Origin: a virus
Taxonomy: Duplodnaviria > Heunggongvirae > Uroviricota > Caudoviricetes
Direction: 5' to 3' (one strand)
Virus record (IMG/VR): IMGVR_UViG_3300009709_000002
Coordinates: 32,001-96,000 of that record
DNA: 64,000 nt
Notes under the pieces: model-generated
Told to the model about the DNA's origin: nothing
The model's database searches: none
What the model saw: only the letters and a program-made list of their open reading frames with translations
Program-made: the position numbers and the translations under genes
Part shown: in pieces, positions 1,963 through 64,000 of the stretch
Numbering within the stretch: the stretch's first letter is position 1
Layout of the letters: each line of letters opens with the position of its first letter

Positions 1963-2655
1963 ATGGTTAATGACAATATTCACTACGTTTACGTCTATCT
2001 AGATCCAAGACGACCGTCGCAATGGAACGTTCTCAATAAGTTTACTTTTGACTATGAACCATTTTATGTAGGTAAGGGCAAAGGATCAAGAATGCTAGTT
2101 CATTTGCGAGACACTTCTGCTACAAGAAAAGTAAACAAAATCAAAGCGATCAAACAATTAAATCTTGAACCAATCATAGTTAAGGTCATAGAACATCTAT
2201 CAGATGATGAATCAAAAGCTATTGAAAAATCTATGATCGCCGATCTTGGCACAATTGAGATTGTGCACAATGTAAAACGTGGGCCACTTACCAACTTAAC
2301 AGAAGGCGGTGAAGGTGGTAAACCAAGTGAAGCTGGAATTCAAAGAATAAGAGAATCTAAACTTGGAAAGTCTCGTACAAATTACAATCCAACAGCAGAA
2401 ACTAGACTTAAACTTGGTGCTGCCCACAAAAACAAACCAAAATCAGATGCTCAAAAGAAGAAAATATCTAATGCTCATCAAAAATTGTGGGATTTAGAGT
2501 TTAATGACGGACGACTACCAATAACAATTAAATCTCTCAAAGCATATTGCATTGAAAACGATCTAATTTACTCCTCTATGAAGGGAACGTTAAAAGGCGG
2601 ATTTCATAGAGGAGTAAGAGCTATCAGAAATTATTCTGAAAATTCAACCAAATAA
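1963..2655 (+). mobile_element. Free-standing GIY-YIG-like homing endonuclease gene with NUMOD3-type repeats
   Basis: YVYVYLDPR...FYVGKGKGSR..H, LTNLTEGGEG, ETRLKLGAAHK and QKKKISNAH repeats; AT-rich; antisense to neighbours; GGAGG RBS. Confidence 0.8.
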
Positions 2656-3947
2656 CGAAGATTTGCTTGCGATGTGCGATACACAATAATTTCATCATTT
2701 AGCACACCAGACTTTCCAGCTTCAGCGAAGCATGAATCGAATCCAGCCTTCTGCCCATTTCCAGTTGAACGAGGATAGTATGGTTTGCCTAGAGCTACAT
2801 CTGCGAGAAACATATAACACACCGTGTCACGTTTGTTAGAGTCCCAATAACCAAAGCTGTAATTGAGTGATTTTGTAGAAGCTGTTGCAAAATATAATCC
2901 GTTGCCAAACAATGCTCCAGCAATTTGCATTGTAGACAATGTTTTAGGAAGCACCAATCCACGTTTCATAATGCTAAGCACATTGAACATACGTGTTCCA
3001 TGCCAAAGCATTTGAATATTACCGACATTCTTTCCGTCTGCTTCAAAAGCAGACGCCATATGTGGAATATCTACTTCATATACTCGCACTGGTTTCAATT
3101 TTGAAGCAACATGCATATCCTTTCGAGTATCATAATACTTCTTAAAGATAGATGCTTCTAGAGCTTTATCTTCTACAACCTTGAGCTTCACTTCAAAAGT
3201 CGATTGAGCTGGCTTACCATCATTCTTCTTAGGCGCCTTAGCAGCATCTACGAGACGTTGGTTGGCGAGATCAACCGATGTTTCAAGCTGATCGAGCAGT
3301 GACGATTGCTTAGCAATGTCTTTGTCGTCAGAGATGAAATAGCGGTGCCATCCACGATTTGAGGGTGTGCGCTGTGGAACGAGGCGAAGATAATCGCCAA
3401 GAGCTTTGACGTAGTCAGGATTGTCGAAGTCACGTTTGATCACGAACTTCGTCATGTCTGCTAGGTGATCTCGAGCTGCATCAACCGCTTCACCGGTGAT
3501 CACACCCATCGCAGTGGAGATGATACCAGTTGAGAGATCGATGTCCATCGCTCCGCCGGTCGATGCGATCAGTTCATGTCGGTTAGCTTCAGCCAGCTTC
3601 TTAACGAGAGTAGACACAACCGGACAGCCTGCGCCGATTTCGGCTTCAGCGATCTTCTTGAGTTGTTCTTTCGAAAGGCTTGAACCAGAGGCAACAGGCG
3701 TTTGCTTTGCAGCAACGATCTGAATTTCTGTGTAGGGAGCGGTTTTGTCGTTCAGCTTCTCACGAATCTTCGTGTTGAGCTTCTTACGATCGAGAGTTTG
3801 TGGCTTCGTGGTGGTTGATGTAACATCGATGCGACCATAAGTGAAGGTCATCGTGTTGTCATCATAGACGGAGTATTCCCAGAACTTGTTGTTGTTTTCA
3901 AGCGGGTTTACTGCGACATACTTCTTATGTTCAATTACGGTTGCCAT
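2631..3947 (-). CDS. Poly(ADP-ribose) polymerase-like protein (WGR + helical + catalytic H-Y-E domain)
   Basis: NNNKFWE..YGRI (WGR-like); LWHGT, GALFGNGLYFA, KSLNYS, MFLADVALG, LNDEIIVY..Q..LRYLVEF. Confidence 0.9.
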   Translation of the reverse strand: MATVIEHKKYVAVNPLENNNKFWEYSVYDDNTMTFTYGRIDVTSTTTKPQTLDRKKLNTKIREKLNDKTAPYTEIQIVAAKQTPVASGSSLSKEQLKKIAEAEIGAGCPVVSTLVKKLAEANRHELIASTGGAMDIDLSTGIISTAMGVITGEAVDAARDHLADMTKFVIKRDFDNPDYVKALGDYLRLVPQRTPSNRGWHRYFISDDKDIAKQSSLLDQLETSVDLANQRLVDAAKAPKKNDGKPAQSTFEVKLKVVEDKALEASIFKKYYDTRKDMHVASKLKPVRVYEVDIPHMASAFEADGKNVGNIQMLWHGTRMFNVLSIMKRGLVLPKTLSTMQIAGALFGNGLYFATASTKSLNYSFGYWDSNKRDTVCYMFLADVALGKPYYPRSTGNGQKAGFDSCFAEAGKSGVLNDEIIVYRTSQANLRYLVEFSE

Positions 3948-4040
3948 TATGAGAGTTCCAACTAACTTATTAACGAGAGACTACTTAACGATTATGAATG
4001 CATGGAAGAACTGTGTTTTGTTCTTCCATGACTTTATTTA

Positions 4041-4277
4041 TCAAAAGTGATCTGCGACGGCCTGTACACAGGCTCTTTGCTCTATGTCATCGTTATGTAC
4101 CTGAACGATGTGTTCTGCTAAGGTCTGTCCAACGTTAAAAGCTATGGCACCTTGTTGGAGCATGTACTTCCCGGTAAAATCTACCCTCACCTTGAATTCT
4201 TTCTCAGTGAAGATTGATCCATCTTTTGCAACCCATTTTGCATTCTGAAATTTATGCATTTGTCTTTCGTGGTGCAT
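4041..4277 (-). CDS. Hypothetical protein
   Basis: 78 aa ORF whose start overlaps the rnl1 stop. Confidence 0.55.
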   Translation of the reverse strand: MHHERQMHKFQNAKWVAKDGSIFTEKEFKVRVDFTGKYMLQQGAIAFNVGQTLAEHIVQVHNDDIEQRACVQAVADHF

Positions 4278-5419
4278 CAGTCTTCCTCGGCTACTGAGTC
4301 AAGCAGGTTGATATTTTCAAGTGAATAACTGCTAAGCAGATTCTGTTCAAAATACTTCAAGACATCTTGATAAGAATCATAGCTATGATCGGTGTACATT
4401 CGCATAGCGATCTTGAAGTGCGGATGTTCTCTGTATTTGTTTACTGCTTCGATACGAGAAAGATCTTTCACGCTCATAAAGAGCCGATTCATTTCATCAG
4501 CAATCAATCGCAGATCAGTCATAACTTCCCATTCTACCGCGACGATCGGTGCGATATCAAGACCATCACCGACTAGCTTTGCCTTCAAGTCATCGATACT
4601 TTCATCGATCACCATGCGTGCAATGTCTCGAACACGAAGGAACGTCATGGCGTGGTGTCGATCCATGTACCACTTGGTCTTCACCTTTACCATCTCACCG
4701 TTTTCAAACTGAGCTATCCAACCTTCAAGACCTTCTTCAACTTCAGCACGAGCCAATAGCTCATCGATCGTGCAAAGCTTTATTTCATCTACAAGATCAA
4801 TTCCATAAGCCATCGACAGCTGAGCCAACTCAGTTGGATTGCTGTACACGCCTGTCGTGTTGTCACGAACATGCAGCAGCTTCAACTGATCTTCAGGATA
4901 TGACACTACGATTCGAGCTTTTGGTGAGGTCCACTCGAAAATAGCCGTCTTCCCTTCTTTCGCGATGCGTCTTGCAAAACCACGCCAAAGGCAGTTAACA
5001 TCCTTGTTGAGCCAATCGGTCGCAGCTTTCGCTACGTCAGATTCAAAACTCTTCTTCGACTTCAATGCAACTTCGCCATTTAGCCAAACCGTGTGGATCA
5101 TCGAGCCATCGCGCTTATCCATCAAGCGCATGATCTTTCGACCTTTCAAAACGTGAGCAAGCGTATGTTCCTTCTCATTCACATTGTGAAACTTGTGCAG
5201 CGGACGGCCGATAACATTTCCCTCGGCGTCGAAAGTGATACCGCGAGCTTCACGAGCAAACTCGTCGCTGAAAGTATCTGGTCCAGAGATAATGTAGCTG
5301 CAAATGACAGAGCCATTTGGTTGGTTCATAAAGCGAATTTCTTCTTTATGTGCCAACTTTGGTTCAAGGTCTGAGCGATGGTGTATCACTGGAAAAGGTT
5401 GTGCCTTAAGAAATGTCAT
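4277..5419 (-). CDS. rnlA: T4 Rnl1-family RNA ligase
   Basis: EARGITF, KFHNVNE, KRDGS (motif I), FEWTSP..RIV, EGWI, KVKTKWY. Confidence 0.9.
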   Translation of the reverse strand: MTFLKAQPFPVIHHRSDLEPKLAHKEEIRFMNQPNGSVICSYIISGPDTFSDEFAREARGITFDAEGNVIGRPLHKFHNVNEKEHTLAHVLKGRKIMRLMDKRDGSMIHTVWLNGEVALKSKKSFESDVAKAATDWLNKDVNCLWRGFARRIAKEGKTAIFEWTSPKARIVVSYPEDQLKLLHVRDNTTGVYSNPTELAQLSMAYGIDLVDEIKLCTIDELLARAEVEEGLEGWIAQFENGEMVKVKTKWYMDRHHAMTFLRVRDIARMVIDESIDDLKAKLVGDGLDIAPIVAVEWEVMTDLRLIADEMNRLFMSVKDLSRIEAVNKYREHPHFKIAMRMYTDHSYDSYQDVLKYFEQNLLSSYSLENINLLDSVAEED

Positions 5420-5446
5420 TCTATATCACACTTTGTTGTTGGTATA

Positions 5447-6229
5447 TTATTTTGCTTTTAACGCGTCCAAGAACGATTCAGAGACAATGTTCTTCAATTG
5501 CTGCGCCTTGATTCCCTGTAGGTTAGGAGTCAAGTTACGGTGCGTGAGTTTCTCTACATCTGCAATCGGGTGCACGTATTCAATCGGTTTGTGACCTTTG
5601 ACAGCGTTGGTATTGGTGACAATGAAGGCAATTCCTTCATTTCTCTTCAAGTCGATGTCGACCTTAAAAGTAGCGATCGGAACTGCTACGTGATCTTCAC
5701 CAATAGTCGAAGGTGCACCAGGACAAAAGATCGGGCCTGTGATGACGTAGATATCGCCACGTTCGATCGCTTCGTGTCGAGTGAAGTCTTCAATCTCACG
5801 CCAAACTACTCGGTTATTAGCTGGAGCTTGCGGAACCATGTTCGACAGTAAGAAACTTTCCTGCATTTCGATCGTGTCATCATGGAAATCACCTGCTGGC
5901 GACATGTGACCTTTGTCAAAGCCGCTATGCACAAAATCGGCTGGAGTTGCTCGCTCATTTACAGGAAGCGAGGTGTCAACTTCAAAGGGCTTGCGTGGTT
6001 CAGCGCCAGTGAGGTTAGCTCCAAGCAAATGCTCGGCCGAGTAGAGTGGATCCTTCAAAGCTGGATCATAGTCTACCGTGTAGGCTCGACGGCATAGTTG
6101 GATCGTGTCTGACCCGGCTACTTTGGTTGGATAACCATACGGCAACAGTTGGTCGCATGGGCTAGTAGCGTAGGCCGCTCCAGAAAAGAGGCAAAGCAAT
6201 ACCAGCGCTTTAGAGAGAAATTTGGTCAT
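5447..6229 (-). CDS. Exported DNA/RNA non-specific endonuclease (NucA/EndA family)
   Basis: N-terminal signal peptide; DKGHMSP, SF.LSNMVPQ, N..VWREIE, YVITGP. Confidence 0.9.
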   Translation of the reverse strand: MTKFLSKALVLLCLFSGAAYATSPCDQLLPYGYPTKVAGSDTIQLCRRAYTVDYDPALKDPLYSAEHLLGANLTGAEPRKPFEVDTSLPVNERATPADFVHSGFDKGHMSPAGDFHDDTIEMQESFLLSNMVPQAPANNRVVWREIEDFTRHEAIERGDIYVITGPIFCPGAPSTIGEDHVAVPIATFKVDIDLKRNEGIAFIVTNTNAVKGHKPIEYVHPIADVEKLTHRNLTPNLQGIKAQQLKNIVSESFLDALKAK

Positions 6230-9497: not shown

Positions 9498-10186
9498 GAT
9501 TTTCTCCTTTTGTAGATTGTAAACCATCTGGATGATCAGGTAAACATTTTGCCAGTTTTAAGCAAAGCAGACCCATATCTCTCCATACCTGAATCTAGTT
9601 AAAAGATAGATTAAAATATCAAGGGAGAGATTCATGCCGTAGATGCTCCTGCTCTTTCTACATGCATGCAGACTTCGAAGTTCATCGCAAGCCTAGAGGT
9701 ACGACGTTTAGCAGAGACATCCCTGTCATAAGCTTGCGCCGCGATTTATCGTCCCACTGTCACTTCTGACTGTGTAGTAGATTGAATATGGATTAGATTC
9801 GAGAACGTTTATCTGGCCTGCCTCTACAGGACCAATCCCTGGGTCGAAGGGGACGGCGAGTTTTGAATTGCCACCGGACAATCGTTGCTTTTCTTTCTGG
9901 CCTGCACAACGAGACAGCACTGCTTGAGGTGAGAAGTACCTTCTTCTACTGAGAAATGGATTGTATTTCAGGCCAGTGAAAAATGGAATTTAAACCGTTC
10001 GGTCGGATGGGTCGTGTTGGAAGAGAAAAGGAGCCAAGAAAAGACTCCGTGAGGAGGTATAAGCGGTGAGTTGTGAGAGTGCACATGGCTAGTCCTGCTC
10101 AAACTCAGCCAGAAATGGTGACCTTTTGAGCCGCTTCCGGCGGTGAAAAAGAAAGCCGGGCTATGCCGGCTTTAGACAGATGGAGC

Positions 10187-14647: not shown

Positions 14648-15169
14648 TCATTGCACCAGCTCGATGATGTACTTGAAGCCTTCCGCTTTCGACGGTGGCA
14701 TGTAAGAATCCGTCATGCTCTTGATCACATGCTGTGGAATGAACTTTCCAGTAGCAGCTGCTCGGGAAGCAAGACGCTCTTGCAACACCTTGTCAGGTAC
14801 GTCAAACTTGATGGCCACGTTGGTATGGCCAATTGAAGATTTTGACACCAAGCTCTTACGAGACTTCGATGACATGTTCGTGCGATCGATGAAGATGTTC
14901 TTCTGTTCAGCAACCGCTTGATCAATTTCTTCTTGGAAGCGCTTGTTGAATTCCTTCATCGGACACTTATCCCAAGCTTGCGAGTAGGTCATGCCGTTTG
15001 CGGCAGCCCACTCATCAATCATGTTATCTGTGCTGATGACAGTAATGTCGATAGATTCTTTAGCGAGCTTCGTGAAGGTCGACTTACCAGATGCTGGAAG
15101 ACCAACTAAAAGAGCAAAGAATGGACGTAACGTCTGGAGACGTTGAATGACTTGTTGTGCTTGTGGCAT
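14648..15169 (-). CDS. P-loop kinase, polynucleotide kinase (PseT kinase domain/AAA_33)-like
   Basis: LVGLPASGKST, ISTD, IDRTN..KSRK. Confidence 0.75.
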   Translation of the reverse strand: MPQAQQVIQRLQTLRPFFALLVGLPASGKSTFTKLAKESIDITVISTDNMIDEWAAANGMTYSQAWDKCPMKEFNKRFQEEIDQAVAEQKNIFIDRTNMSSKSRKSLVSKSSIGHTNVAIKFDVPDKVLQERLASRAAATGKFIPQHVIKSMTDSYMPPSKAEGFKYIIELVQ

Positions 15170-17397: not shown

Positions 17398-18867
17398 TTA
17401 CAGCCCCAGCTCTTCTGGGATACTTTCACCGAGTGGTACGATTCCATTGAAGCGACGAATCTGCTCCAACGTCAGCGTGTTCGGTACCTTGCCATGATCA
17501 TAGATGGTCCACATCATGTCTTCGAACTCTACATCGAATTCTCCAACTTGCAACGTGCTCCATTCACCTGTGAGACGGCTGCGAACGGTGGTCAGGCGAC
17601 CAGCCTTCGACTTCTTGCCTGGATCAGTGATTGGATCCTTGAAGATCTTGACCCACTCACCGCTGTCAAGCAGGATAGCACTGGACTTCTGTGCAAAGCT
17701 CAGATCATCTCGCTTTGCATTTTGCAGCAGATCGCCGCCGGAGCCGTAGACGATCGTCGATGCAGCGAACTTCTTATCTTCAAGAAGATTCAAGATCTTT
17801 GCGATCATCTCGTAGTTGATGCCGTCACCTTGGATGATACCAACGTGGTTGAGCACCTTGTAGCCCTTCGTGTTGATCGTCGTGCCGAAGTGCTTCTCGA
17901 GCAGATCGAGTAACCAGCTGATGATTTCAACAGGATCACCAGAGTCAGGGCGGAAGACGACCTTCGCACCAGAATCGATGATTCGTTGCTTGAACTTCGT
18001 GCAAAGCAGCTCTGCCTCACGGAAGACGTTGTAGCCGTCGATCACCAGAGACAGAATAGCGCCAGGCTTTGCGTACGCATCGAGAATTGCTTCGATGTAA
18101 GCTTCTTGGTGCTCAGGCCCGTAAGCTGTCTGAATGCTGTGTTCAGTTGCAGGAACGCTGAAGGCAGCCATGCGTTCGAAGTAATAGAAGTTTGCAGCAC
18201 GAACACCAGAGATCGTATCCGACCCACGGAAGAATACACAGTGAGCAGCACCGCCGATCTGACCTTGCTCTTCGCAAGTTACACCGCGACCAGCAAAATC
18301 ATGCAGAGAGAATGACATGATCACATTGAAGAAGGCATCATCGCACGAACGGCGAACTGCTTTAGCGATGATGTCATACTTCTCACGGTCATTGCTGGCG
18401 ATCGTTGTCGGATACCAGACGCCGCGTTGCATCGTCGTTTCGATGTATGAGGCGAGCCAGAACAGGCGCTTATCGGTGCATTCCACCGTCACGATCGCGT
18501 TGCTCGAAGGCATCATCATACCTTCCTTGACACCACGAATCACTACCGGCAGATAGCCATCATACTTCTCGACGATGTAGTCCCAATCCTGGCGATTGAA
18601 CGGAACCATGTGGTTGATAGCAAATTCTTCTGCTTCATCCACATCTGCTTTGGTGATTGGATCGAGCAAGCACTTGCGAACCCACATCTGCATGCCAAAT
18701 GGCACGACGAGCTTACCTTTGCGCCGAGGCTCGATGTAGGCGAACATACCTTGAATTTTCTCTGGGTACACAAGCCAATGCGACAGCTTGTACGAATCCA
18801 CATCGAGTATTAAATTGTAACCAAGGCGGTTCAGTGAAGCTTTTTGAGTTTGAATTTTCTTAAGCAT
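17398..18867 (-). CDS. nadV: Nicotinamide phosphoribosyltransferase (NAMPT)
   Basis: DSYKLSH, VWYPTT, LHDFAGRG, SVPATEHS, RPDSGDP, IQGDG, GSGG, KDPITDPGKKSK. Confidence 0.95.
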   Translation of the reverse strand: MLKKIQTQKASLNRLGYNLILDVDSYKLSHWLVYPEKIQGMFAYIEPRRKGKLVVPFGMQMWVRKCLLDPITKADVDEAEEFAINHMVPFNRQDWDYIVEKYDGYLPVVIRGVKEGMMMPSSNAIVTVECTDKRLFWLASYIETTMQRGVWYPTTIASNDREKYDIIAKAVRRSCDDAFFNVIMSFSLHDFAGRGVTCEEQGQIGGAAHCVFFRGSDTISGVRAANFYYFERMAAFSVPATEHSIQTAYGPEHQEAYIEAILDAYAKPGAILSLVIDGYNVFREAELLCTKFKQRIIDSGAKVVFRPDSGDPVEIISWLLDLLEKHFGTTINTKGYKVLNHVGIIQGDGINYEMIAKILNLLEDKKFAASTIVYGSGGDLLQNAKRDDLSFAQKSSAILLDSGEWVKIFKDPITDPGKKSKAGRLTTVRSRLTGEWSTLQVGEFDVEFEDMMWTIYDHGKVPNTLTLEQIRRFNGIVPLGESIPEELGL

Positions 18868-18959
18868 GAAAGTCTCTTTCATAAAGACGAAGCCGTCTAT
18901 CGGCAACGTTTACTACAAGAGCCGCCTATGTAGATTATAACATAGGCGGCCAGATTTTG

Positions 18960-20180
18960 TTACAGCGATCCACCACCAACCATCGTAGCGATGATATCGA
19001 AGTGGTCCTCGAACAGCTGATCACGCATGTTGGCGATCTTGGACAGCGGAATCCACTCGGCCTTCTCAGCGTCATCCGACCCCTTTACTTCCGGCAGTTC
19101 ACCAGTTTCAGGAAGTTGGAACATGTAAGCTACGGTGATCGTACGACCACGCAGTGAACGTTCTGGCAAGTCAAAGATTTCCTTCTTGACGAAGGAGCCT
19201 TTCAGCGCAGCCGGTGATACTTTGAGTCGAGTTTCTTCTTTGGTCTCACGAAGAGCAGCAGCGAACAGACGTTCATTTTGCTCTAAGAAACCGCCAGGCA
19301 GAGCATACAGCCCCTTGCCAGGTTGACCACGACGCTTCACCATCAGGATCTGGCCTGATTGAATGATGACCGAATCAACGGTGACGAAGATCGGAGCATA
19401 TGGTGCAGCTTCCCAAGCTTTCTTGTAACCTTCAATGAAGCGGAACTCAGCTTGCAACGTTGCGTACGTGTTAAGCAGCTTGAAGCTAACAAGGAAATCC
19501 CAAGTCGACGCTGGCAGGAATGACTTCAACAGAAGCTCATACATGACATCATCGATAGGTTTGCCATTGAAGAACCCACCGAAGTAGATTTCACGAACCA
19601 TAGTTGCGCTGAGCGCTTTGCTGATTCGATCATCATGAACGACGAGGTCTTTGACAAGCTTTGGAAAGTACTTCAGGTAGTACGTTGAATCATCACGATC
19701 AGAGCCTGTGAGGAAGCTCTTGATTTCGATTCCAGACAGCCACGGATCGAGGCAAGGTTGCGTTGCGCTTTCCAGGCACTTGACTTCTTGACTTACGTCA
19801 TACACATGCTGATCAATCCCCTTGATCCAAAGATTGTCATTGTACGGTACGTCGATGCCTTGACGGAAAAACAATTTGCGACTTACTTGCGGGCCAAAAG
19901 TATCAACGGCCCACTCTTGAATCATCTGTGTTCGCTCGTTATATGTGAACGGATTCTTGGTGGTGCGTGGTTGATTTGACGAGCCGACGATGATCAGGGC
20001 ATAGTCATACTTCTCGATCATTCGAGAGATAACGTTTGCGTGACCAAGGTGGAAGGGAGAGAAACGACCAATGTAAATGCCAAGAGAAACTTGACGATCA
20101 CCAGGTTTTTGAGTTGTGAGAGAGCCGATACTACCGGCCGAGGATACATCTGCTGCTGCAGTTTTGAAATTCTGGGACAT
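18960..20180 (-). CDS. nadM: Bifunctional NMN adenylyltransferase / Nudix ADP-ribose pyrophosphatase
   Basis: IGRFSPFHLGH, KNPF, SATMVR; Nudix box PGGF..NE....AALRETKEET; RSLRGRTIT, DDA, FEDH. Confidence 0.93.
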   Translation of the reverse strand: MSQNFKTAAADVSSAGSIGSLTTQKPGDRQVSLGIYIGRFSPFHLGHANVISRMIEKYDYALIIVGSSNQPRTTKNPFTYNERTQMIQEWAVDTFGPQVSRKLFFRQGIDVPYNDNLWIKGIDQHVYDVSQEVKCLESATQPCLDPWLSGIEIKSFLTGSDRDDSTYYLKYFPKLVKDLVVHDDRISKALSATMVREIYFGGFFNGKPIDDVMYELLLKSFLPASTWDFLVSFKLLNTYATLQAEFRFIEGYKKAWEAAPYAPIFVTVDSVIIQSGQILMVKRRGQPGKGLYALPGGFLEQNERLFAAALRETKEETRLKVSPAALKGSFVKKEIFDLPERSLRGRTITVAYMFQLPETGELPEVKGSDDAEKAEWIPLSKIANMRDQLFEDHFDIIATMVGGGSL

Positions 20181-54728: not shown

Positions 54729-55083
54729 TGGTGGACCTGCGCGGAGTCGAACCGCGGTCTTTGAGTCATTTCCAGATACCGTCTACACTCATAGTTCCGT
54801 TGGTCATTTAGTCGATCAACAAAGCCCAAGCTGGCAAAGCGTGTTGATCCAAGCTCGCTAAATCTTAATTCACGGCCGCAAACGAGTCACATGAATCTAG
54901 TCAGTCAATCGGATGACCCGGCAATAAAGTAGGACTGACACTCTCTACTCGCCGAGCTTACGCTGCTAGAGCGTAAGAGCTGTCGTTAGACGCTGCGGTT
55001 ACTTCTGTTGCTCTGTTTAACGTCAGTTGCATGACGGAGTGCGGATAAACGAATTCTACCCAAATCTACACCATTTCAGGCCC
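54729..55083 (-). ncRNA. ssrA: tmRNA, tag peptide AASNDSSYALAA* (54958-54996)
   Basis: Acceptor stem GGGCCTG/CAGGTCC-ACCA with G3:U; T-arm CGCGG-TTCGACT-CCGCG; 355 nt; tag ends YALAA. Confidence 0.95.
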
Positions 55084-60555: not shown

Positions 60556-60713
60556 TGGGTGGGCACCCCGCGGGATTCGAACCCGGGTCAGCTACAAGCT
60601 ATCGCAGATTCAATCTTGAGGGAGAGTCTAGAATCGCACTCAAAACAACCTGGTCTTTCCTGTATTGCAACGGCTTATCGGCCGCCGGCTTTTCCAATTA
60701 CCATAGGTACCCA
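60556..60713 (-). ncRNA. 158-nt tRNA-like RNA with greatly extended variable arm
   Basis: Acceptor (T)GGGTACC/GGTGCCC(A)-CCCA, D-loop AATTGG, GCGGC-CGATAA-GCCGT arm, T-loop TTCGAAT, 77-nt hairpin insertion. Confidence 0.7.
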
Positions 60714-62349: not shown

Positions 62350-62611
62350 CCTCCGTCATTTCTGCTCGACGCTTAGTTTCAGCGTTCTCATGAAAACGAA
62401 CACGAGTACGAACATACTTCTTAGCTCCAGCTTTGTTCTTTCTGGTGCGCTTCTTAGCGCTCACAGCAGACGTGTCTGGCACATGAGCTACTGCTGAAAT
62501 GATCTTGTCAGCGAGCTCAGAGTGTTCAAATCCACCACCAACAACGTACTTTCGTTGAAAGCTATTTGCAGCTCGTGTATCTTTGAAGCCACGTTGATGA
62601 TTCGTTTTCAT
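62333..62611 (-). CDS. Basic hypothetical protein (start MKTNH)
   Basis: GGAG RBS; the upstream part of the tracked ORF is a tRNA gene. Confidence 0.5.
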   Translation of the reverse strand: MKTNHQRGFKDTRAANSFQRKYVVGGGFEHSELADKIISAVAHVPDTSAVSAKKRTRKNKAGAKKYVRTRVRFHENAETKRRAEMTEVENEI

Positions 62612-62623
62612 GATCACTCCAAT

Positions 62624-62714
62624 TGGCGGAAAAGTACGGAATCGAACCGTTGCCAACTTACGCCAGCAGAACTCCTTTCCAGGGAGACCCCATCACCATC
62701 AGGGAAACTTTTCC
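62624..62714 (-). tRNA. Non-canonical 8/4 tRNA-Ser(GGA), allo-tRNA/tRNA-Sec-like scaffold
   Basis: 8-bp acceptor GGAAAAGT/ACTTTTCC-GCCA; 4-bp T stem ACGG/CCGT; CT-GGA-AA loop; long variable arm. Confidence 0.8.
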
Positions 62715-62722
62715 GTTTCTAG

Positions 62723-63034
62723 TCAAGCAAAAGCTGGACCAGGGAATCTCAATGTGTAGTACGGTTCAAGGTACTCACATGAATCTTCAGCTTCTGGGTA
62801 AAAACAATTCTTTTCCCAGTCACGTAATGCTTTGCGCCTCGGCCAATAGAAGTCCGTAATGATGCTCAGAACTTTACTATAAGCTTGTTCTTTGGTGCAG
62901 AAGGTGAAATATGCTTTCATATCACCTTCACGCAGAGCTGCAGCGATACCAGCTTTGCAAATTTTGATGACGTACTTCAGCTCATCAGCCGAGATGTTGT
63001 CGATGAGAACTTGAGTGTCGAGTAAAACTCCCAT
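62723..63034 (-). CDS. Hypothetical protein
   Basis: GGAGG RBS. Confidence 0.55.
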   Translation of the reverse strand: MGVLLDTQVLIDNISADELKYVIKICKAGIAAALREGDMKAYFTFCTKEQAYSKVLSIITDFYWPRRKALRDWEKNCFYPEAEDSCEYLEPYYTLRFPGPAFA

Positions 63035-63045
63035 CGTAACCTCCG

Positions 63046-63258
63046 TTAAACTACTTCTTCCAAATGAGCGACTGGAATCGTGAAGCTCGGATAGTCACCA
63101 TTTACATCATGCGTCACCGAGATGTGTTGAATTCCGGTGAAACGAGTATCATCACTAGCCAGACCATAATCATGCTTCATCAATTCATACACGATCTGGC
63201 CTTCAGTTACTTCGCCGCTTGAATTTTCAGCATTCAACACTTTGTACTTTTTGACCAT
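63046..63258 (-). CDS. Hypothetical protein (start MVKKY)
   Basis: HDYGLASDDT..TG..H.SVT...GDYP.FTIP pattern recognisable from phage proteins. Confidence 0.55.
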   Translation of the reverse strand: MVKKYKVLNAENSSGEVTEGQIVYELMKHDYGLASDDTRFTGIQHISVTHDVNGDYPSFTIPVAHLEEVV

Positions 63259-63529
63259 GTTTTTCTTTTGGTATGTGTTTGTAGGTTCTCGGATCATACA
63301 GCTCATCGGTAAAATGCACGCCGATCTTATAATCCCAGAATTCAATCTTGTACTCACGACCCTCAAGCAGCTTACGAGTCATGTGCTTGTAGCTTCCATA
63401 AACAACACCATCAGTGCCTAAAGTACTCGTCCACATGAACAAATACTTCCAAAGCGTAGCTTCTGATTTCACCAAGGCGGCTTCAAGAGCTGCTTCTGGA
63501 TCTTTCTGAAATTCTTCTAGTGTCGTCAT
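63227..63529 (-). CDS. Hypothetical protein
   Basis: 100 aa. Confidence 0.5.
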   Translation of the reverse strand: MTTLEEFQKDPEAALEAALVKSEATLWKYLFMWTSTLGTDGVVYGSYKHMTRKLLEGREYKIEFWDYKIGVHFTDELYDPRTYKHIPKEKHGQKVQSVEC

Positions 63530-63537
63530 AGTAAACT

Positions 63538-63725
63538 TGGCAGCCCCGGCTTGGAATTGAACCCGCGACCCTCAGATTAGAAATCTGCCGCTCTAACGAA
63601 CGTATGTTGCGCTACCATCTCTGGTCATCAGCCTATGCATAAGCTTCAGAGTTTCAATGCAGTCTTCACACGTTGCGCTGTTTCATCTATGATCACTTGA
63701 CAAAACACCACTGAGCTACGGAGCC
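63538..63725 (-). tRNA. tRNA-Arg(UCU)-like gene with 111-nt structured insertion in the D-loop
   Basis: GGCTCCG-TA-GCTC-AGTGG[63597-63707]TTA-GAGC; TT-TCT-AA loop; TTCAATT; CGGGGCT-GCCA. Confidence 0.8.
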
Positions 63726-63737
63726 ATTGTAAAAATT

Positions 63738-63825
63738 TGGCGGAGGCTGTGAGATTCGAACTCACGGAGCTGTTACACTCGCCGGGTTTCAAAGCCGGTA
63801 CCTTAAACCACTCGGTCAAACCTCC
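63738..63825 (-). tRNA. tRNA-Ser(UGA)
   Basis: GGAGGTT/AGCCTCC-GCCA; TT-TGA-AA loop; variable arm; TTCGAAT. Confidence 0.9.
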
Positions 63826-64000
63826 AGATACTACCAGGTGATCTTCAACCCATAATGAATCATAGGCTCCTCATCACCAGTCGAACCAAGACCATTATAA
63901 ACCGTAGGTCTCGGCTTGTAAATTTCTACTTTGTAAGAAAGCGGTGCAGCTTCTAACCGCTCTTTCACCAGCAGCCAAAACGTTGGCGGCTTGAACCTAG

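Follow-up and report, generated by a model that had tools for sequence, protein, structure and literature searches.

A tRNA gene with 111 extra nucleotides in its D-loop raises the question of what becomes of its transcript: whether the insert is removed as an intron, is a lesion in a dead gene, belongs to the leader of the mRNA that follows, or stays in place as part of a working RNA. We addressed this question for a tRNA-Arg(UCU) gene of a virus recorded in IMG/VR. The window, meaning the whole 64,000-nt stretch of DNA that was analyzed, corresponds to bases 32001–96000 of a 360,227-bp record that has direct terminal repeats and is rated 100% complete. The closest cultured relative is Ralstonia phage RsoM2USA, which is only 50% identical in topoisomerase II subunit A, and we therefore consider the source to be an uncultured jumbo bacteriophage. 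In RsoM2USA, we found only a tRNA-Thr that shares its T arm with the interrupted tRNA-Arg. ARAGORN called 51 tRNA genes and a tmRNA in the phage genome, and 45 of these 51 tRNAs have an encoded CCA, as does the interrupted gene. Other genes in the window include topoisomerase II subunits, an NAD-salvage set, a PARP-like protein, Fpg, and an Rnl1 ligase. Two minus-strand regions (2631–6229 and 17398–20180) hold the PARP-like protein, Rnl1 adjoining an Endonuclease_NS protein (a non-specific DNA/RNA endonuclease), and an NAD-salvage pair made up of NAMPT and an NMNAT-Nudix fusion.

The interrupted gene is on the minus strand, among tRNA genes and small ORFs that form an array in the same orientation. 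See Table 1 for the coordinates of all features at the locus. The sigma-70-like match listed there could drive a joint transcript of tRNA-Ser(UGA) and the interrupted tRNA-Arg. A plus-strand promoter-like match inside the insert (63665–63693) comes from a search that returned 3 sites, compared with 1.5 ± 1.3 expected. An overlapping 57-aa ORF (63646–63819) was set aside because it reads through tRNA-Ser.

Table 1. Features of the interrupted tRNA-Arg locus, in window positions
Feature	Position	Strand	Details
Interrupted tRNA-Arg gene	63538–63725	-	188 nt, from G1 at 63725 to the CCA end at 63538
5' tRNA part	63708–63725	-	Acceptor 5' strand GGCUCCG, U8 A9, D-stem GCUC, D-loop AGUGG through G18 G19; invariant in three assemblies
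Insert, 111 nt, between G19 and position 20	63597–63707	-	Single-copy, ORF-free, no Rfam family
Hairpin 1 (insert nt 1–29)	63679–63707	-	9-bp stem UGUUUUGUC/GAUGAAACA, 11-nt loop AAGUGAUCAUA; pair probabilities 0.8–1.0
Hairpin 2 (insert nt 34–109)	63599–63674	-	Irregular rod AACGUGUG/CAUACGUU, CUGC/GUAG, CUCUG/CAGAG, AGCUUA/UAGGCU, cap UGCA
Internal loop of hairpin 2	63619–63651	-	CUGA on the 5' side, (C)UGAUGA on the 3' side; K-turn-like in part only, by inspection
3' tRNA part	63538–63596	-	UUA, D-stem GAGC, anticodon arm, variable loop GGGUC, T arm GCGGG-UUCAAUU-CCAAGC, acceptor 3' strand, G73-CCA
ORF100	63227–63529	-	ORFan; start 9 nt past the CCA of the interrupted tRNA
tRNA-Ser(UGA)	63738–63825	-	12 nt upstream of the interrupted tRNA-Arg, same strand
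Sigma-70-like promoter match	63894–63922	-	TTTACA-17-TATAAT, 11/12; consensus match only, ~70 nt upstream of tRNA-Ser(UGA)

Several other RNA genes of this phage are oversized or remodeled. Directly upstream of the YqeY gene, an oversized tRNA-like RNA is encoded on the minus strand at 60556–60713. It is conserved in two relatives, L020 (where the YqeY protein is 91% identical) and L019 (68%), with compensatory change in the acceptor stem (GGGUACC/GGGUGCCC versus GGGGGUC/GGGCACCC) and a long extra arm whose core is nearly invariant. The remaining examples are given in genome coordinates, and all are on the minus strand. The tRNA at 9727–9848 (43.8 bits with Rfam) has its anticodon loop interrupted by ~50 nt, and ARAGORN reads it as Thr(tgt) with an intron; the anticodon varies with the splice register and is UUA in one register. 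A tRNA-like gene at 334882–334968, just under the Rfam threshold at 27.3 bits, has ~15 extra nt in the region of the anticodon arm and adjoins the canonical tRNA-Arg(tct) of the phage. Just past the window end, a 139-nt tRNA-like RNA (97067–97205) combines a long branched arm with a loop of 5 nt where the anticodon would be. Two further tRNA-like genes (98485–98564 and ~99073–99155) have D-loops enlarged to ~16 nt (GGCUAAUG.AAAUUUGGCACAGCU); of the two, only the first is called by Rfam and neither by ARAGORN. Additionally, ARAGORN calls a tRNA with the anticodon CUA at 277432–277506 (labeled Pyl; 56 bits with Rfam), which would be of the amber-suppressor type. The tmRNA (95 bits) is inside the window at 54729–55083, also on the minus strand, and encodes the tag peptide AASNDSSYALAA.

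We examined the tRNA body with the insert deleted. A sequence-only reading of the window had proposed that a 77-nt cloverleaf remains once 63597–63707 is removed, and ARAGORN indeed calls this 77-mer as tRNA-Arg(tct). It has a 7-bp acceptor stem with two G.U pairs, a GCUC/GAGC D stem, an 8-nt D-loop (AGUGG before the junction and UUA after it), the anticodon UCU within the loop UUUCUAA, and an encoded GCCA at the 3' end. The 77-mer is colinear over the deletion junction with uninterrupted phage tRNAs, at 75–83% identity over 90–100% of its length. The aligned homologs include the annotated tRNA-Arg(tct) of Streptomyces phage BRock and that of Caulobacter phage CcrBL9. The gene is a genuine tRNA frame that is interrupted between G19 and position 20, with a splice register that can shift by ±1 nt, since both junctions are flanked by G and U. 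The intact 188-nt gene receives no tRNA call from ARAGORN, at the Rfam gathering threshold, or at an Rfam E value of ≤10.

The 77-mer also has defects. There is a G27.A43 mismatch, and the T stem (GCGGG/CCAAGC) has one extra base that is common to all carriers. A20 is the main arginine identity base in bacteria. Every true tRNA-Arg homolog that we aligned has GGA in the D-loop, and thereby A20, whereas the gene described here reads GG-insert-UUA. A20 is absent from the gene whether it is spliced or not, and the insert occupies exactly that site. The missing A20 and the bulged T stem had both been pointed out from the sequence, and the 77-mer structure and the homolog alignment agree with that description. 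The canonical tRNA-Arg(tct), with A20, is present elsewhere in the phage genome.

The insert itself is predicted to fold into two hairpins. RNAfold predicts the same five helices that the sequence-only reading had drawn by eye. Pair probabilities are highest, at ~1.0, in hairpin 1 and in the outer stem of hairpin 2, followed by AGCUUA/UAGGCU (0.9), CUGC/GUAG (0.75), and CUCUG/CAGAG (0.5). G:U pairs favor the tRNA strand, as had been suggested, with −25.6 kcal/mol compared with −16.1 kcal/mol for the antisense strand (9.5 kcal/mol better). Hairpin 1 is invariant in the three sequences available, and its loop AAGUGAUCAUA holds the palindrome UGAUCA. Dinucleotide shuffles gave no sign of extra stability for either the insert (z = −0.18) or the whole RNA (z = +0.26). 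Since the fold energy is at the level of the shuffles, the helices alone are no evidence of function. The tRNA frame on either side of the insert does exceed chance.

The internal loop of hairpin 2 had been likened to a K-turn, and the likeness holds in part. A C helix, a 3-nt bulge, and tandem G.A/A.G pairs are possible: by inspection, and in insert numbering, a helix at A63-U78, a bulge of G79 A80 U81, and the pairs G82.A62 and A83.G61 fit the motif. However, the next pairs would be C.U and C.C, and a rival 5-bp Watson-Crick helix competes for G61. A protein of the L7Ae family (PF01248) had no match in the phage genome. The stretch GCUGAUGA is common to this insert and to the anticodon-loop insert at genome positions 9727–9848. 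We attribute this recurrence to chance, since the CTGATGA heptamer is three-fold over-represented across the phage genome and 49 of 300 shuffles score as well. No similarity was found between the insert and the other two oversized tRNA-like genes. The direct repeat AGCGCAAC and the loop palindromes UGAUCA and AUGCAU were also considered and set aside, as each is within chance by a rough count (p about 0.09).

We then compared the insert with known classes of introns, ribozymes, and mobile elements. Group I introns are far longer than 111 nt. The claim that the insert is not one of them held, as a 401-nt Rfam search at E ≤ 10 matched the insert, which is in a D-loop, to no group I intron (Intron_gpI, RF00028), no self-cleaving ribozyme family (hammerhead, twister, pistol, hatchet, HDV, and others), and no other family. 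tmRNA and YrlA likewise had no significant Rfam match on the insert. A hammerhead reading of CUGAUGA was rejected: Rfam gave no match, and the 3-bp CCA/UGG stem behind the motif does not lead into GAAA. A scripted search for a bulge-helix-bulge motif at the three possible registers scored 8/10 at best, which 34% of random genome windows also reach; with Watson-Crick pairs only, the score was 6/10, reached by 63% of random genome windows. Neither EndA (PF01974) nor RtcB was found in the complete phage genome. Both blastn and a covariance model find a single copy of the insert in 360 kb, and it has no inverted ends or terminal repeats of the kind seen in MITEs; the junction repeat amounts to the 1-nt ambiguity only. 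ARAGORN calls no tRNA inside the insert, and it contains no plausible ORF.

These results bear on the possibility that the insert is an intron. An endonuclease that we do not recognize could cut it out, with Rnl1 and a kinase rejoining the ends, or a small unrecognized ribozyme could remove it, and the product would be a 77-nt tRNA-Arg(UCU) that decodes AGA. Precise deletion does give back a cloverleaf, the insert is conserved, and the same genome has a tRNA whose ~50-nt anticodon-loop insert would make it non-decoding if unspliced. Small unexplained introns are reported from the tRNAs of Lak megaphages (PMC6784885), and D-loop introns are known from archaea and from the red alga Cyanidioschyzon merolae (PMC4090602, PMC3728597). 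Enzymes encoded by the phage also count in favor. Of the two RNA-repair enzymes ascribed to the window in the sequence-only reading, the Rnl1-type RNA ligase is present at 4277–5419 (minus strand) and gives context to any cut-and-rejoin idea, but the “Pnk-like” kinase is an AAA_33 kinase only (~14693–15112), with which no PNK3P phosphatase domain was found.

Against an intron, there is the lack of any group I or ribozyme match at E ≤ 10, a length too short for group I, a bulge-helix-bulge score at chance level, and the absence of EndA, RtcB, and the PNK3P phosphatase from the phage. The spliced product would be without A20, would have a bulged T stem and the G27.A43 mismatch, and would be redundant to the canonical tRNA-Arg(tct). 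No carrier has an insert-free allele. Furthermore, an insert in the D-loop, unlike one in the anticodon loop, need not leave for the tRNA body to fold. On balance, we consider splicing to a decoding tRNA-Arg unlikely, and a D-loop intron that is taken out through Rnl1 and the kinase or by a small unrecognized ribozyme decidedly unlikely.

To obtain homologs, we searched a large protein collection for proteins encoded next to the gene and fetched the contigs of the matches. The interrupted gene and its insert are present in two Logan contigs from other runs, L024 (SRR34148718) and L023 (SRR23815405), and a third contig, L030 (SRR5829574), is identical to the window over the interrupted gene. 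The analysis of constraint thus uses three distinct carrier sequences (the window, L024, and L023), which are 98–99% identical. No homolog of the insert was detected in INPHARED by blastn, in IMG/VR, JGI metagenomes, or GTDB genomes by DNA patterns, or in IMG/VR by scans for the neighboring proteins. R1, a covariance model of the insert, found nothing beyond the three carriers when run on the phage's own genome, RsoM2USA, LR756502, CcrBL9, a 330-kb IMG/VR relative, and the loci of the relatives. So far, the interrupted gene occurs in one narrow, uncultured lineage.

Relatives without the gene show how it is placed. Three syntenic relatives (L018, L019, and L022; 66–75% protein identity) keep the order Ser(tga) ... 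Ser(gga) ... YqeY ... Leu(taa) and do not have it. The closest comparison is L028, a contig of 21.7 kb assembled from the run that also gave the carrier L023. It matches the window at 93.8% identity as far as 63730, just past tRNA-Ser(UGA) and five bases short of G1. There the homology stops; L028 diverges and is without the whole block of the interrupted tRNA-Arg, ORF100, ORF70, and ORF103. Opposite this variable spot (62576–63730, minus strand), L028 has only ~185 nt (3449–3633), and more distant relatives have unrelated small ORFs. Therefore, the interrupted tRNA is the first gene of an accessory cassette between two tRNA-Ser genes. Even very close strains differ in whether they have this cassette. 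In every carrier the gene includes the insert, and non-carriers are without the entire gene.

The insert changes slowly compared with neutral sites nearby. Among the three carriers, 3 of 111 insert sites and 1 of 77 sites in the tRNA exons are variable. The corresponding counts in ORF100 and ORF103 are 12 of 73 four-fold-degenerate sites, while third codon positions vary at 22 of 190 and first and second codon positions at 4 of 380. The insert is about six times more conserved than the four-fold sites of the flanking ORFs and is on par with the exons (Fisher test, p = 0.0012 against four-fold sites and p = 0.0044 against third positions). In the comparison with L024, pS is 0.133 for ORF100 and 0.155 for ORF103, and the 188-nt gene has a single change. 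The flanking differences nearest to the gene are at 63735 and 63530, where the low-divergence block stops ≤10 nt from each end.

The changes that did occur leave the helices paired. Within the insert, 63672 (C/U), 63656 (U/C), and 63633 (G/A) are variable. A C-G pair becomes U.G at 63672 in L023, a U.G pair becomes U-A at 63633 in L024, and the third substitution is in an internal loop. The sole exon substitution, G to U at 63564, is also in L023 and brings back a T-stem pair. No double-sided compensatory change was observed in the insert helices among the three carriers, and the pattern is thus a sign of constraint and not proof of structure. L024 carries most of the weight in the selection signal, because in L023 the stretch of low divergence reaches into ORF100. 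Recent recombination over such a tract could produce the same pattern.

A dead tRNA gene has to be weighed against these data. On this account, a spare tRNA-Arg was hit by an illegitimate insertion of 111 bp and by an indel in its T stem and has since been carried passively in an accessory block, and it looks conserved because the carriers share a recent ancestor or because of a recombination tract. The insert, the extra T-stem base, the missing A20, and the G27.A43 mismatch would all be lesions in a redundant copy that is missing from the nearest relatives, and the chance-level fold of the insert and the continuation of the L023 low-divergence tract into ORF100 fit as well. However, flanking neutral sites differ by 13–15% from L024 and the 188 nt differ at one site, with the block of low divergence stopping no more than 10 nt past either end of the gene. 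A neutral insert should have collected about 15 changes, and each of the three helix substitutions (two in the insert, one in the T stem) either preserves pairing or restores it. A decayed tRNA hit by an insertion is what the sequence-only reading had named as the outcome that would overturn it, and the 3/111 against 12/73 variable sites and the paired stem changes disfavor that outcome. Because the insert changes slowly relative to four-fold sites and pairing is kept, a decaying pseudogene is unlikely; as a full account of the locus, we regard the dead gene as improbable. The interrupted gene is probably functional and under selection, by the pattern of substitutions.

We also considered the gene downstream. 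ORF100 has no Pfam match and no Atlas lead, and its AlphaFold model has a pLDDT of 57. It is under purifying selection (pN 0.013 and pS 0.133 against L024) and is present only in assemblies that have the interrupted tRNA. In L023 (281–769), the ORF reads as 162 aa; it departs from the window version after about residue 88 and enters the next gene, pointing to a frameshift or a mosaic junction. The tRNA-shaped element might be a cis-acting leader that controls the processing, stability, or translation of the ORF100 mRNA and not a free tRNA mimic. The start of ORF100 directly behind the CCA, with no terminator between the two, would fit such a leader, as would the purifying selection on both and the finding of ORF100 only together with the interrupted tRNA. 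Against it, the co-occurrence comes from one narrow lineage and may be plain linkage, and ORF100 is without a recognizable family or a confident fold. Furthermore, phage tRNA arrays commonly yield co-transcripts of tRNA and mRNA that involve no regulatory coupling. A leader of this kind appears very improbable to us.

The reading that we prefer is an unspliced, non-decoding, tRNA-shaped RNA, to which we assign a probability of roughly 0.45. The lack of A20, the extra T-stem base, the canonical tRNA-Arg(tct) elsewhere in the genome, and the failure to find a removal route favor such a non-decoder. The oversized tRNA-like RNA at 60556–60713 counts as a precedent from the same clade. The interrupted tRNA frame, the slow change of the insert, and the paired helix substitutions also speak for this reading, as does the setting of the gene, which shares its strand with the nearby tRNA-Ser(UGA), ends in an encoded CCA, has the promoter-like match upstream, and folds better as the sense strand. 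Several points weigh against it: the three sequences are 98–99% identical and have no double-sided covariation, the fold energy is no better than that of shuffles, and the gene is dispensable, being absent from the 93.8%-identical L028 and from relatives at 66–75% protein identity. The conservation of the insert would fit an intron that requires structure equally well. The sequence-only reading had offered an intron or an unspliced RNA as its two options; the decayed gene that it set against both is disfavored, but three near-identical sequences do not choose between the two.

Under the preferred unspliced reading, the product would be an RNA of ~188 nt derived from tRNA-Arg(UCU) and expressed from an accessory gene that is kept by selection. 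The gene may be co-transcribed with the upstream tRNA-Ser(UGA), and tRNA-processing enzymes would excise the RNA, with RNase P cutting at G1 and trimming to the encoded CCA. The insert lies in the length-variable part of the D-loop. Since its two helical elements begin and end at the same junction, the elbow between G18/G19 and the T-loop and the rest of the cloverleaf can presumably still form. The RNA would then act unspliced, as a non-decoding tRNA-shaped molecule whose extra domain may offer a binding surface. We speculate that its most likely role is in the contest between phage and host over tRNAs, for example by engaging a tRNA-binding enzyme or nuclease through the intact anticodon arm, outside translation.

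The interrupted gene escapes tRNA finders and Rfam yet behaves as a gene under selection. It belongs to a phage that invests heavily in tRNAs, with 51 tRNA genes, a tmRNA, Rnl1, and several remodeled or oversized tRNA-like genes. Should the RNA function with its insert in place, a D-loop would have room for a large working domain, a new architecture for the mimics of tRNA with which phages may counter host defenses aimed at tRNAs. If it is spliced, there would be an undescribed route of tRNA splicing in bacteria or their viruses, and a true D-loop intron would be the first tRNA intron of a bacterial virus that is outside the anticodon loop and not group I.

The architecture is not described in the literature that we searched, and a large D-loop insertion is not among the types listed in a review of non-canonical tRNAs (PMC7609411). 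Introns of the D-loop or D-arm are known only from archaea, among them Crenarchaeota, and from the red alga C. merolae, where they depend on a bulge-helix-bulge and on EndA (PMC4090602, PMC3728597). Like those ectopic introns, the insert described here is short, ORF-free, and outside the anticodon loop, and its precise removal restores a cloverleaf. Unlike them, it has a bulge-helix-bulge score at chance, and its carrier is a bacteriophage with a tmRNA gene and without EndA or RtcB. The eukaryotic settings of tRNAscan look for anticodon-loop introns. With these settings, Devoto et al. (2019) reported “enigmatic” small introns in Lak megaphage tRNAs, one of which may itself encode a tRNA, and aligned alleles with and without the insert (PMC6784885). 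The Lak inserts are likewise small, located in tRNA genes of very large phages, conserved in sequence, and outside any known intron class. However, the insert described here is in the D-loop, is not tRNA-shaped by ARAGORN, and has no insert-free allele. Group I introns in the anticodon loops of bacterial, plastid, and phage tRNAs also interrupt a tRNA gene in a bacterial-type system, but here the site is the D-loop, the length is 111 nt, and there is neither a homing-endonuclease ORF nor an Rfam match.

Among unspliced RNAs, phage T4 makes RNA C and RNA D, small stable RNAs from its tRNA region whose role is unknown (PMC3014915). As in T4, an RNA that is not of tRNA size is encoded within a phage tRNA array and is presumably matured by the tRNA-processing machinery; unlike RNA C and RNA D, it has a complete cloverleaf with an anticodon arm and an extra domain in the D-loop. 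A tRNA-type core that bears an added structured element is also the plan of class II tRNAs with their long variable arms, of tmRNA, and of the bacterial Y RNA YrlA. In these RNAs, the added element is at the variable arm or replaces the anticodon arm, whereas in the phage gene it is in the D-loop.
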